NCBI RefSeq assembly: GCF_003334405.1 | Contig: NZ_QOWM01000010.1 | Strand: one strand, 5' to 3' | Length of the DNA stretch: 64,000 nucleotides | Source of the DNA: Escherichia coli | GTDB taxonomy: Bacteria > Pseudomonadota > Gammaproteobacteria > Enterobacterales > Enterobacteriaceae | Shown here: positions 23,365 to 28,218 of the stretch, in pieces | How positions within the stretch are numbered: the first letter of the stretch is position 1 | Layout of the letters: every line of letters begins with the position of its first letter | The notes under the pieces: generated by a model | The model's input: only the letters and a program-made list of their open reading frames with translations | Databases searched by the model: none | What the model was told of the DNA's origin: nothing | Made by a program: the position numbers and the translations under genes

Positions 23365-24324
23365 ATGAAGCCGGAAAACAAACTACCTGTTCTGGACCTT
23401 ATTTCTGCTGAAATGAAGACCGTTGTGAATACTCTTCAGCCGGATTTACCGCCCTGGCCCGCAACGGGAACGATTGCTGAGCAACGACAGTATTACACGC
23501 TTGAGCGCCGATTCTGGAATGCGGGCGCTCCAGAAATGGCAACCAGAGCTTACATGGTTCCAACAAAATATGGGCAGGTGGAAACACGTCTCTTTTGTCC
23601 GCAGCCAGATAGCCCAGCGACGCTATTTTATTTGCATGGAGGCGGTTTTATTCTCGGCAATCTCGATACCCACGATCGCATCATGCGCCTGCTGGCAAGC
23701 TACAGCCAATGTACGGTGATTGGTATTGATTACACCCTTTCACCTGAAGCGCGTTTTCCGCAAGCGATAGAGGAAATTGTGGCTGCTTGTTGTTATTTCC
23801 ACCAGCAGGCGGAGGATTATCAAATCAATATGTCCCGCATTGGCTTTGCCGGTGATTCCGCAGGTGCCATGCTGGCGCTCGCCAGTGCGTTGTGGTTGCG
23901 TGATAAACAGATCGATTGCGGTAAAGTTGCGGGCGTTTTGCTGTGGTATGGGCTTTACGGATTACGGGATTCCGTGACTCGTCGTCTGTTGGGCGGTGTC
24001 TGGGATGGCTTAACGCAACAGGATTTGCAGATGTACGAAGAGGCATATTTAAGCAACGACGCGGACCGCGAGTCGCCGTATTACTGTCTGTTTAATAATG
24101 ATCTCACTCGCGAAGTTCCGCCCTGTTTTATTGCCGGGGCGGAGTTCGATCCGCTGCTGGATGACAGCCGTCTGCTTTACCAGACGTTAGCGGCGCATCA
24201 GCAGCCCTGTGAGTTCAAACTCTACCCAGGCACGCTGCACGCCTTTTTGCATTATTCACGGATGATGAAAACCGCCGACGAGGCTCTTCGCGACGGCGCT
24301 CAGTTCTTTACCGCTCAGCTTTAG
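23365..24324 (+). CDS. aes: Acetyl esterase (hormone-sensitive-lipase family), 319 aa
   Basis: ORF track 319 aa; oxyanion-hole motif HGGGF and nucleophile motif GDSAGA. Confidence 0.95.
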
Positions 24325-25283
24325 CGATACGCGGCAACAAGATTAGCCATCATTTCGATATGTTCCGGCGTGGCATTAAGCGCCGGAATATATTCATATT
24401 TTTTCCCGCCGGCACCGAGGAAGACCTCACGGTTTTGCTCGGCAATCTCTTCCAGCGTCTCCAGACAATCCGCAGCAAAGCCCGGGCACATCACCTGAAT
24501 ATGACCTACGCCTTTTTCTCCGAGCATTTTCAGCGTTTCGTCGGTATAAGGCATCAGCCAGGGTTCCCGACCAAAGCGCGACTGAAAGGTCATCATCACT
24601 TTTTCCGGTGCCATCCCCAATGCGGAAGCCAGTTCACGAGTCGTTGTGCGGCAACGTTGCGGGTAATCATCGCCTTCATCTGCATAACGCTGGGGAATGC
24701 CATGATAAGAGAGCAGTAGCAGATCCGGTTCGCCATGTTTGGCAAAAGAAGCGCGTACGCTGTTCGCCAGTGCATTAATGTAATCGTGGTTATCGGCGTA
24801 ATCACGTATAAACGATATCCCTGGAATGCTACGTTTGCGCGCCAGAATGCGTGCCAGTTCATCCCATACCGCACCGACCGTAGAACAGGAGAATTGCGGA
24901 TAAAGCGGCAGCACCACAATATGATCTACATGCTCTGCCAGGAGTTCATCTACGGCGCTTTCCAGTGATGGCGAGCCGTAGCTCATTCCCAGCGCTACGG
25001 GCATCTCCGGTAAACGTTGTGCCAGCGCCTGCTGTTGCTGGCGGCTGTAAACCATCAGCGGCGAGCCACCTTCCATCCAGACAGAGGCATACAGCTTCGC
25101 CACACGCGGCGAGCGCAGCGGCAAAATCACGCCGCGCAGCAATGGCCACCATAACAACCGTGAGGTATCAACCACGCGTCTGTCGCTTAAAAATTGTTTC
25201 AGATAGCGTTTTACCGCTTCAGGTGTGGGGGCATCGGGCGTACCCAGGTTTGCCAGCAGGATACCGGTTTTAGTCTGACGCAT
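24321..25283 (-). CDS. hemH: Ferrochelatase, 320 aa
   Basis: ORF track 320 aa; 3' end overlaps the aes 3' end by 4 nt (convergent). Confidence 0.95.
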
Positions 25284-25439
25284 TACCGCCTCTTATCGAT
25301 TCAACTTGTTGATAATTGTAGCGGAAAAGTGAGGAAGAAGAACTAATTGCTGTGAGAGGTCAAATCAGAAAAAGGAATAGCGCAGATTGAGGTTTTTGTA
25401 AAAGGCCGAATGAATATCCGGCCTGAGATTGCTGATAAG

Positions 25440-25505
25440 TTTGCTTGTGCGGGCCTGTTCCCCTCACCCTAACCCTCTCCCCGAGGGGGCGAGGGGACTG
25501 TCCGT
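25440..25505. repeat. GC-rich imperfect palindromic intergenic element (not REP-type) between hemH and adk
   Basis: cccctcaccctaaccctctccccgagggggcgaggggac: a CCCTCnCCC / GGGnGAGGG-type dyad. I cannot name the repeat family with confidence. Confidence 0.5.
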
Positions 25506-25518
25506 GCGCGCTTTCGAA

Positions 25519-26235
<717 letters not shown>

Positions 26236-26300: not shown

Positions 26301-26339
26301 AAAAGAAAAATGCCGGATGACACGAAGGTCATCCGGCAT
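26301..26339 (-). terminator. Intrinsic terminator downstream of htpG
   Basis: On the minus strand: hairpin aatgccggatgac-cttcgtg-tcatccggcatt followed by a U-rich tract (tttttctttt). Confidence 0.7.
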
Positions 26340-26343
26340 TACA

Positions 26344-28218
26344 TCAGGAAACCAGCAGCTGGTTCATACGACGAATAAACAGGTTCGGATCTTCCAGCGT
26401 GCCGCGTTCTGCCAGCAGCGCCTGATCCAGCAGCAGTTCTACCCACTCGCTGAACTTCGCTTCATCTTCAGTATCTGCCGCACGTTTCACCAGTACGTGA
26501 TCCGGGTTCAGTTCGAAGATGTATTTCACTTCTGGCACTTTCTGGCCCGCCGCAGCGAACAGTTTCGCCATCTGAGTGCTCATTTCGTCCGCGTCGGTCG
26601 AAACGATCGCTGGCGTATCGGTCAGACGGTGAGTCAGACGGACATCTTTCACGCGCTCGCCGAGCAGGGCTTTCACACGGTCGATGAACGGAGTCAGTGC
26701 TTTCTCCGCTTCTTTCGCGCTCTCATCAACTTCGTCAGCCAGTTTTTCAAGCGACTCGTCAACTTTAGACACCGACTGGAACGGTTTACCGTCGAACTCA
26801 GTCAGATAGTTCATCATCCACTCATCGATGCGGTCGGAAAGCAGCAGAACTTCGATGCCTTTCTTACGCAGCAGTTCCAGGTGCGGGCTGCTCTTCGCTG
26901 CCGCATAGCTGTCTGCGGTGATGTAGTAGATTTTCTCCTGCCCTTCTTTCATGCGGGAAACGTAGTCTTCCAGAGATACGGTCTGCGCAGAAGAATCGGT
27001 ATGGGTAGAAGCAAAACGCAGCAGTTTGGCGATCGCTTCCTGGTTAGCGAAATCTTCCGCCGGACCTTCTTTCAGTACCAGGCCAAACTGTTGCCAGAAG
27101 GTCTGGTATTTTTCCGCGTCGTCTTTCGCCAGTTTTTCCAGCATTTGCAGCACACGCTTGGTCAGCGCATTGCGCAGGTTACGCGTTACCGTGCTGTCCT
27201 GGAGGATTTCACGGGAAACGTTCAGCGGCAGATCGCTGGAGTCAATCAGACCACGCACGAAGCGCAGATAGTTCGGCATGAACTGTTCTGCGTCGTCCAT
27301 GATGAACACACGCTGAACATACAGTTTCAGGCCGTGTTTATGATCGCGGTTCCACATATCCCACGGAGCCTGGGACGGGATGTACAGCAGGCTGGTGTAC
27401 TCCTGCTTACCTTCAACACGGTTGTGGCTCCAGGTCAGCGGATCATTAAAGTCGTGGGCGATGTGTTTGTAGAACTCTTTGTACTCTTCATCGGTGATTT
27501 CCGACTTGTTACGAGTCCACAGCGCCTGCGCTTTGTTGATTTTCTCCCAGGAGATAACGGTTTCGCCGTCTTTCTCTTCGCGTTTTTCGATCTCTACCGG
27601 CAGCGCGATATGGTCGGAGTATTTGCTGATGATGGAACGCACGCGCCAGTCATCGAGGAACTCGTCTTCGCCTTCACGCAGATGCAGGGTGATTTCAGTA
27701 CCACGATCTTCTTTGGTGATGTCGGCAACGGTGTATTCACCTTCGCCAGCCGATTCCCAGAAGACGCCATTTTCTGGTTTTTCGCCTGCCGCGCGAGTAC
27801 GCACGGTCACTTTGTCGGCCACGATAAACGCAGAGTAGAAACCAACACCAAACTGACCGATCAGCTGGCTGTCTTTCGCCTGGTCAGAACCCAGGGATTC
27901 GAGGAATGATTTGGTACCGGATTTAGCGATAGTCCCCAGATGGTCAATCACTTCGTCGCGGGTCATCCCCACGCCGTTATCGGAGATGGTCAGCGTACGC
28001 TTGTCTTTATCGAAAGAGACACGAACGCGTAGTTCGCCATCACCTTCGTACAGGTCCGGGTTAGAGAGCGCACGGAAACGCAGCTTGTCCGCCGCATCGG
28101 AGGCGTTAGAGATAAGCTCACGCAGGAAGATTTCTTTATTGGAATAGAGAGAATGGATCATCAGGTGCAGAAGCTGTTTCACTTCTGACTGAAAACCACG
28201 AGTTTCTTGTCCTTTCAT
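26344..28218 (-). CDS. htpG: Hsp90-family molecular chaperone HtpG, 624 aa
   Basis: ORF track 624 aa; GHKL ATPase N-terminus ([21 protein letters not shown]). Confidence 0.97.

Follow-up and report, generated by a model that had tools for sequence, protein, structure and literature searches.

What is the GC-rich palindrome that lies between adk and hemH in Escherichia coli, and does it serve either of the two genes? The window analysed here, a stretch of 64,000 nucleotides, carries the E. coli gene order gsk–aes–hemH–adk–htpG, in agreement with the annotation of strain MG1655. On its minus strand, the list of open reading frames places htpG at 26344–28218 and hemH at 24321–25283, while adk, encoding adenylate kinase, occupies 25519–26163 both in that list and according to the MG1655 annotation. 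The palindrome is found in the spacer that follows the adk stop codon. An initial annotation described it as an unusual element and suggested three alternatives: it might be a member of a minor intergenic repeat family, an adk terminator, or an element acting on RNA stability.

A catalogued copy of the BoxC repeat

The string by which the palindrome was recognized, cccctcaccctaaccctctccccgagggggcgaggggac, is located on the plus strand at 25460–25498, within positions 25440–25505 and in the adk–hemH spacer. On the minus strand, positions 25460–25495 form a core of 36 nucleotides, CCCTCGCCCCCTCGGGGAGAGGGTTAGGGTGAGGGG. This core matches exactly, in 36 of 36 positions, the element TMECO no. 6 of Holder et al. 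(NAR 2015, PMC4666352), listed in Table 1 of that work as type A mm at 497,843–497,878 on the plus strand of MG1655. The listed coordinates are consistent with the end of adk at 497,819 in NC_000913.3 (MG1655 annotation). TMECO elements, the 'triplex motifs' of E. coli, had been described earlier as BoxC and as PIT (potential intrastrand triplex) elements, and 23 copies, every one intergenic, are known in MG1655 (PMC4666352). BoxC is also counted among the known repeat families of E. coli, with a quoted length of 56 bp (PMC2267715). The palindrome downstream of adk is copy no. 6 of the BoxC repeat and as such already known, so the label 'unusual' is unwarranted and the annotation should carry the name BoxC/TMECO instead. 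The BoxC repeat was described in the 1990s.

The TMECO consensus is CCCTCNCCC-N3-6-GGGNGAGGG-N3-GGGNGAGGG (PMC4666352). The core downstream of adk, which reads CCCTCGCCC-cctcg-GGGAGAGGG-tta-GGGTGAGGG-G on the minus strand, agrees with this pattern in the form CCCTCNCCC-N3-6-GGGNGAGGG-N3-GGGNGAGGG[G/T/C/-]; the second loop TTA defines it as type A, and it has one mismatch ('mm'). It had been read as a pyrimidine-rich arm followed by its purine-rich complement. A hairpin-forming palindrome is indeed present, but the simple layout of two arms does not hold, since the core contains three blocks (CCCTCGCCC, GGGAGAGGG, and GGGTGAGGG), one of them C-rich and two G-rich. The view that the element is not of the REP type is borne out by the absence of the REP core GCCGGATG from 25440–25510.

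An alignment of 11 K-12 copies, comprising the one downstream of adk and 10 others, shows an invariant core with essentially invariant stems, and flanks that are common to the copies (5' CG.GC.CG.ACGGTC, 3' AA.A). Together with these semi-conserved flanks (5' GCGCGCACGGACAGTC, 3' AACA), the unit downstream of adk extends over about 55 bp on the minus strand, at 25456–25510 with approximate boundaries, and has ACAGTC in its 5' flank where the family pattern has ACGGTC. The length of the aligned unit, about 55 bp, agrees with the published 56 bp (PMC2267715).

To place the element in the species, a 76-nt query was compared with 5426 complete E. coli genomes. It found 72,793 matching places in 5408 of them; the median genome has 15 such places and the richest 26. 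The motif is therefore not unique to this locus, and the proposed membership in a minor intergenic repeat family is confirmed, the family being BoxC/PIT/TMECO. Within the window itself, the element exceeds what chance would produce: the motif as first written and the 36-nt core occur once each, and neither occurs in any of 100 dinucleotide-preserving shuffles; no further BoxC copy is found in the 64 kb even with three mismatches tolerated. A scan of 25200–25600 against Rfam at a permissive E-value returned sub-threshold chance matches alone, the best being an unrelated eukaryotic element (19 bits against a gathering score of 40, E = 0.16). A literature search for later functional studies of TMECO, PIT, or BoxC retrieved nothing beyond Holder et al. 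2015. BoxC is a GC-rich interspersed intergenic repeat of the Enterobacteriaceae, about 55 bp long and built from one C-rich and two G-rich blocks.

BoxC-like matches are also present on plasmids of Klebsiella, Rhizobium, Sinorhizobium, Azospirillum, and Aeromonas, and in three phage records only. Their spread over plasmids is consistent with the broad distribution of TMECO described by Holder et al. (PMC4666352). The matches are frequent on the Rhizobium, Sinorhizobium, Azospirillum, and Aeromonas plasmids. The Campylobacter phages A18a and A11a (H89 and H90, records of 174 kb) have three places each, with about 88% identity to BoxC over 52 nt. The plasmid and phage matches alike may be either true relatives or convergent GC-rich motifs. 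A link between BoxC and mobile elements was considered and is unsupported: the phage collection yielded three records, and several of the top E. coli 'plasmid' entries are Mb-sized.

Two further observations concern the arrangement of BoxC-related sequence. In Enterobacteriaceae bacterium RIT714 (L037:2296-2730), three BoxC cores follow each other at a regular spacing of 124 bp (2446, 2570, and 2694), and the htpG–adk spacer of the same genome (L037:9700-9870) contains a tandem unit of about 50 bp (..CTCTTCCTCGTCAGGTTAGGGGACCGCCCGGTGCGGTTTTCAC..) adjoining a BoxC. According to these arrays, BoxC-related sequence can evidently be amplified in tandem. In K-12, the partial BoxC-like fragments CCCCAAAGGGGAGAGGGGAC and TCACCCCAATGGGGAGAGGGAG are located about 40–60 nt upstream of two catalogued copies, between yagA and yagE (L006:91-150) and between yjdP and phnP (L014:91-150). 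Possibly, each of the two copies once belonged to an inverted pair, the fragment being the degenerate partner, which a strict consensus misses.

Hairpin, transcript, and terminator downstream of adk

The core starts 24 nt past the adk stop codon, in agreement with its description as directly downstream of that codon. Folding of the 40-nt core as minus-strand RNA, which covered Watson–Crick and wobble pairs only, predicts a stable hairpin with a dG of −28.4 kcal/mol (z = −3.65), a more stable fold than that of any of 200 shuffles. In this hairpin, block 1 is paired with block 3, one of the pairs being G-U; the alternative partner is block 2, with one G.A mismatch. The stable hairpin expected of the minus-strand transcript is thus predicted.

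A GC-rich hairpin just past a stop codon resembles an intrinsic terminator. However, the sequence that comes after the BoxC hairpin (GGGGAACAGGCCCGCAC; GGGGAACAGGCCCGC) offers no U-tract, and the mapped 3' end of the transcript belongs to the following hairpin. This hairpin, AGGCCGGAU-AUUC-AUUCGGCCU followed by UUUU, is located at 25400–25424 on the minus strand and is defined by its inverted repeat, its fold, and Term-seq. The stem-loop itself spans 25404–25424 and has a predicted RNA dG of −13.2 kcal/mol (z = −5.1). Term-seq of MG1655 detected 3' ends at 497,939/497,940 on the plus strand, with the flanking sequence ...CAGGCCGGATATTCATTCGGCCTTTTAC... (Adams et al. 2021, PMC7815308, supplementary files 1 and 3). 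They correspond to positions 25399/25398 of the window, directly past the U-tract of the 25404–25424 hairpin, while no 3' end is listed at BoxC (4978xx) in the supplementary files of that study. A consensus scan of 25200–25600 for promoters and terminators called nothing, and it missed the real adk terminator because only four U are present there. Furthermore, Hoyne and Maher, as summarised in PMC4666352, found PIT elements to have neither promoter nor terminator activity and to be without effect on RNA polymerase. Contrary to the second of the initial suggestions, BoxC is not the adk terminator, a role that belongs to the hairpin following it.

The mapped 3' end lies 61 nt downstream of BoxC, which places the repeat inside the adk 3'UTR, and from this position we infer that it is transcribed together with adk. 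Its location in a transcribed 3'UTR (3' end 497,939) and the strength of its RNA hairpin (−28.4 kcal/mol) raise the possibility that BoxC is a functional RNA element, in line with the initially suggested role in RNA stability, blocking 3'-to-5' exonucleases or serving as a back-up or partial terminator, and so doing the job that REP or other hairpins do in other lineages. The hairpin that occupies the same position in the second allele of the spacer (dG −22 kcal/mol; see below) would fit such a role. Opposed to it are the lack of a listed Term-seq end at BoxC and the published tests of PIT elements in the summary cited above, and the good terminator hairpin downstream leaves little for BoxC to protect. 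BoxC is also missing from 46% of E. coli genomes, in which the adk coding sequence is unaltered. We consider a dedicated function in the RNA unlikely, and return below to its best argument, which comes from the htpG–adk spacer.

The repeat could alternatively concern the gene on its other side, by binding a protein or by forming a structure that influences the hemH promoter downstream. It shares an intergenic region with hemH, whose start codon follows about 175 bp further on. Upstream of hemH, a block at 25284–25361 on the minus strand (ACCTCTCACAGCAATTAGTTCTTCTT...CGCTACAATTATCAAC...) is common to both E. coli alleles and to many genera; it is presumably the hemH promoter and 5'UTR. BoxC lies outside this block and upstream of the adk terminator, and at adk–hemH half of E. 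coli genomes and all other genera examined lack it. The TMECO family as a whole has no association with gene function, no fixed distance to open reading frames, and no positional trend (PMC4666352). A regulatory site for hemH is therefore highly improbable. In the same region, a Rho termination region is reported at 498,060 on the plus strand (Adams et al. 2021, supplementary file 2, PMC7815308), corresponding to about 25278 of the window, 5 nt into the hemH coding sequence, a hint that Rho may terminate transcription prematurely where hemH begins.

Two alleles of the adk–hemH spacer

Comparison of the spacer by genome search and alignment reveals two alleles. The 'long' allele, represented in the window by 157 bp at 25362–25518 on the minus strand, contains BoxC, single-copy sequence, and the terminator hairpin. 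It is found in 2915 of 5426 complete E. coli genomes (about 54%), scored as full coverage of a 435-bp query that spans the spacer; the remaining genomes align in two pieces and have a shorter spacer. In four aligned genomes with the short allele (L002–L005), the adk stop codon is separated from the conserved hemH-upstream block not by these 157 bp but by an unrelated segment of 53 bp that has its own hairpin and no BoxC. BoxC is thus missing at adk–hemH in about 46% of E. coli genomes, with the adk coding sequence unchanged, and is dispensable at this locus.

The short allele is also present in E. albertii (L016) and in the GTDB representative of E. coli (L017). Among the genomes aligned, it is seen with either flanking haplotype, and the long allele only with that of the window. 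The flanking haplotypes and E. albertii as the one outgroup species suggest that the short allele is probably ancestral in Escherichia and the long allele derived. As an observation on the short allele itself, a 12-bp hairpin with a dG of −22 kcal/mol and no U-tract is located directly past the adk stop codon (L002:478-534; also in L003–L005, L016, and L017).

The part of the long allele outside BoxC, about 95 bp, is single-copy sequence. It is found in 2914 genomes, once in each and always with BoxC; no extra copy is found in the E. coli genomes and no counterpart in 80 Enterobacterales adk loci. The long-allele segment is nearly invariant, with at least 99% identity in 2873 of the 2914 genomes. 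The long allele is a block that includes this single-copy sequence, and not a clean insertion of BoxC. An insertion of BoxC into the hairpin loop of the short allele, where MAFFT aligns the flanks, was rejected: the similarity is weak and the flanks belong to the family consensus. The dimorphism is relevant to typing schemes or primers sited in this spacer.

The dimorphic locus invites an explanation at the level of DNA, in which BoxC, when single-stranded, folds into an intrastrand triplex (H-DNA) and stalls polymerase, so that the resulting local instability gives rise to the two alleles. Type A mm oligonucleotides do form an intrastrand purine-motif triplex in vitro, as observed by CD and NMR, with a Tm of about 74 °C, and among 56 E. 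coli strains the variability of TMECO loci exceeds that of control loci; in vivo DMS footprinting, on the other hand, detected no triplex (PMC4666352). The identity of at least 99% within the long allele also speaks against an unstable element. Moreover, genera that lack BoxC downstream of adk have completely different spacers at this place, and the htpG–adk spacer behaves likewise. Because the slot varies regardless of BoxC, cause and effect may be reversed, with repeats settling in permissive slots of fast turnover. We regard instability driven by BoxC as quite unlikely to explain the dimorphism.

BoxC, REP, and the slot past the stop codon

The comparison across genera and K-12 loci bears on what kind of place BoxC occupies. 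BoxC is absent downstream of adk in all 80 Enterobacterales adk loci, and what lies between the adk stop codon and the conserved block near hemH is completely different between genera. Enterobacter, Klebsiella, Phytobacter, and Kosakonia have TCTCACCCGG..CCGGGTGAGA hairpins in this slot, Citrobacter and Kluyvera have REP/BIME-like elements, and Salmonella has another hairpin. The slot past the htpG stop codon is filled by one BoxC or an inverted pair in Enterobacter, Klebsiella, Kluyvera, Phytobacter, Pseudocitrobacter, and others, and by GCCGGATG-type hairpins in Escherichia, Salmonella, and Citrobacter. In the window, the htpG terminator at 26311–26336 contains GCCGGATGAC..GTCATCCGGC.

The BoxC past htpG is located about 140–250 nt upstream of adk in L018, L020, L022–L025, L030, L032, L033, L037, L041, L044, L049, and L063. 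Its offset is often the same across genera (about 170 nt before the adk ATG), and in several genera no evident U-tract terminator is seen near it.

At the K-12 loci examined, BoxC is intergenic in 18 of 18 cases: nine between co-oriented genes, seven between convergent genes, and two between divergent genes. A gene 3' end adjoins the element at 16 of the 18 loci (raw tally), and at seven of the nine co-oriented loci the element starts 11–54 nt past the upstream stop codon. The orientation of BoxC relative to the upstream gene is variable among these loci. A distribution adjoining gene 3' ends is that known for REP elements.

The likeness to REP/BIME (PU) elements extends further. The two kinds of intergenic repeat share a short, GC-rich, palindromic form and a location mostly just past stop codons; both are transcribed in 3'UTRs and vary between strains, and in the htpG–adk and adk–hemH slots some genera have a REP-type element where others have BoxC. 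In contrast to REP, BoxC lacks the GCCGGATG / CATCCGGC core of an imperfect palindrome; it is composed of three blocks with a strong strand asymmetry, one C-rich and two G-rich, and is present in about 15–26 copies, whereas REP elements number in the hundreds. To our knowledge, no transposase is associated with BoxC, unlike REP with its RAYT/TnpA-REP enzymes.

These comparisons also contain what most favours a functional RNA element: besides the 16 of 18 K-12 loci that adjoin a gene 3' end, the best argument for it is the BoxC past htpG, which many genera have where Escherichia has a REP-like terminator hairpin. The presence of copies in both orientations relative to the upstream gene argues against it. 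Given the similar offset in several genera and the lack of an obvious U-tract terminator, the BoxC past htpG could have a hairpin role at the 3' end in some contexts.

Taken together, the copy between adk and hemH is very probably BoxC no. 6 as a repeat that is tolerated where a transcription unit ends, REP-like in its behaviour and not a terminator. As a tolerated repeat, it would be co-transcribed with adk from its place in the 3'UTR between the stop codon and the intrinsic terminator. In the RNA, block 1 could pair with either of the other two blocks, preferably block 3, to give a stable hairpin, and as single-stranded DNA the three blocks could adopt the intrastrand purine-motif triplex published for the in vitro situation. 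BoxC would not be required for the expression of adk or hemH, and its influence on the 3'-end structure of the adk mRNA would be modest and non-essential at most. The spot just past the stop codon would be a permissive slot, filled elsewhere with REP-type or other hairpins, and BoxC would mark a spacer segment of fast turnover. That this copy has no specific function is suggested by its dispensability together with the negative results on other copies.

The identification is that of a known repeat, catalogued at the exact coordinate in 2015, and matters little in itself. What is added here is that TMECO no. 6 belongs to a spacer allele of 157 bp found in about 54% of 5426 genomes, that its place is in the adk 3'UTR before the mapped terminator, and that the family shows an apparent bias to gene 3' ends. 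Because slots vary even without BoxC, the link between BoxC and variability may partly correspond to the fast turnover of the slots. What has been published as an association of BoxC with instability may thus in part reflect where repeats are tolerated rather than an effect of the repeats.

A broader and rather speculative possibility, to which we give little weight, is that BoxC, REP, and simple hairpins are interchangeable modules of the post-stop slot, swapped between lineages by recombination, with BoxC having a real if modest function at RNA 3' ends. If true, this would explain both the 3'-end bias of BoxC and its presence past htpG across several genera, and slot turnover would be the cause, not the result, of the association between BoxC and 'genome instability'. 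The sharing of post-stop slots by BoxC and REP between genera may bear on the question of BoxC function.
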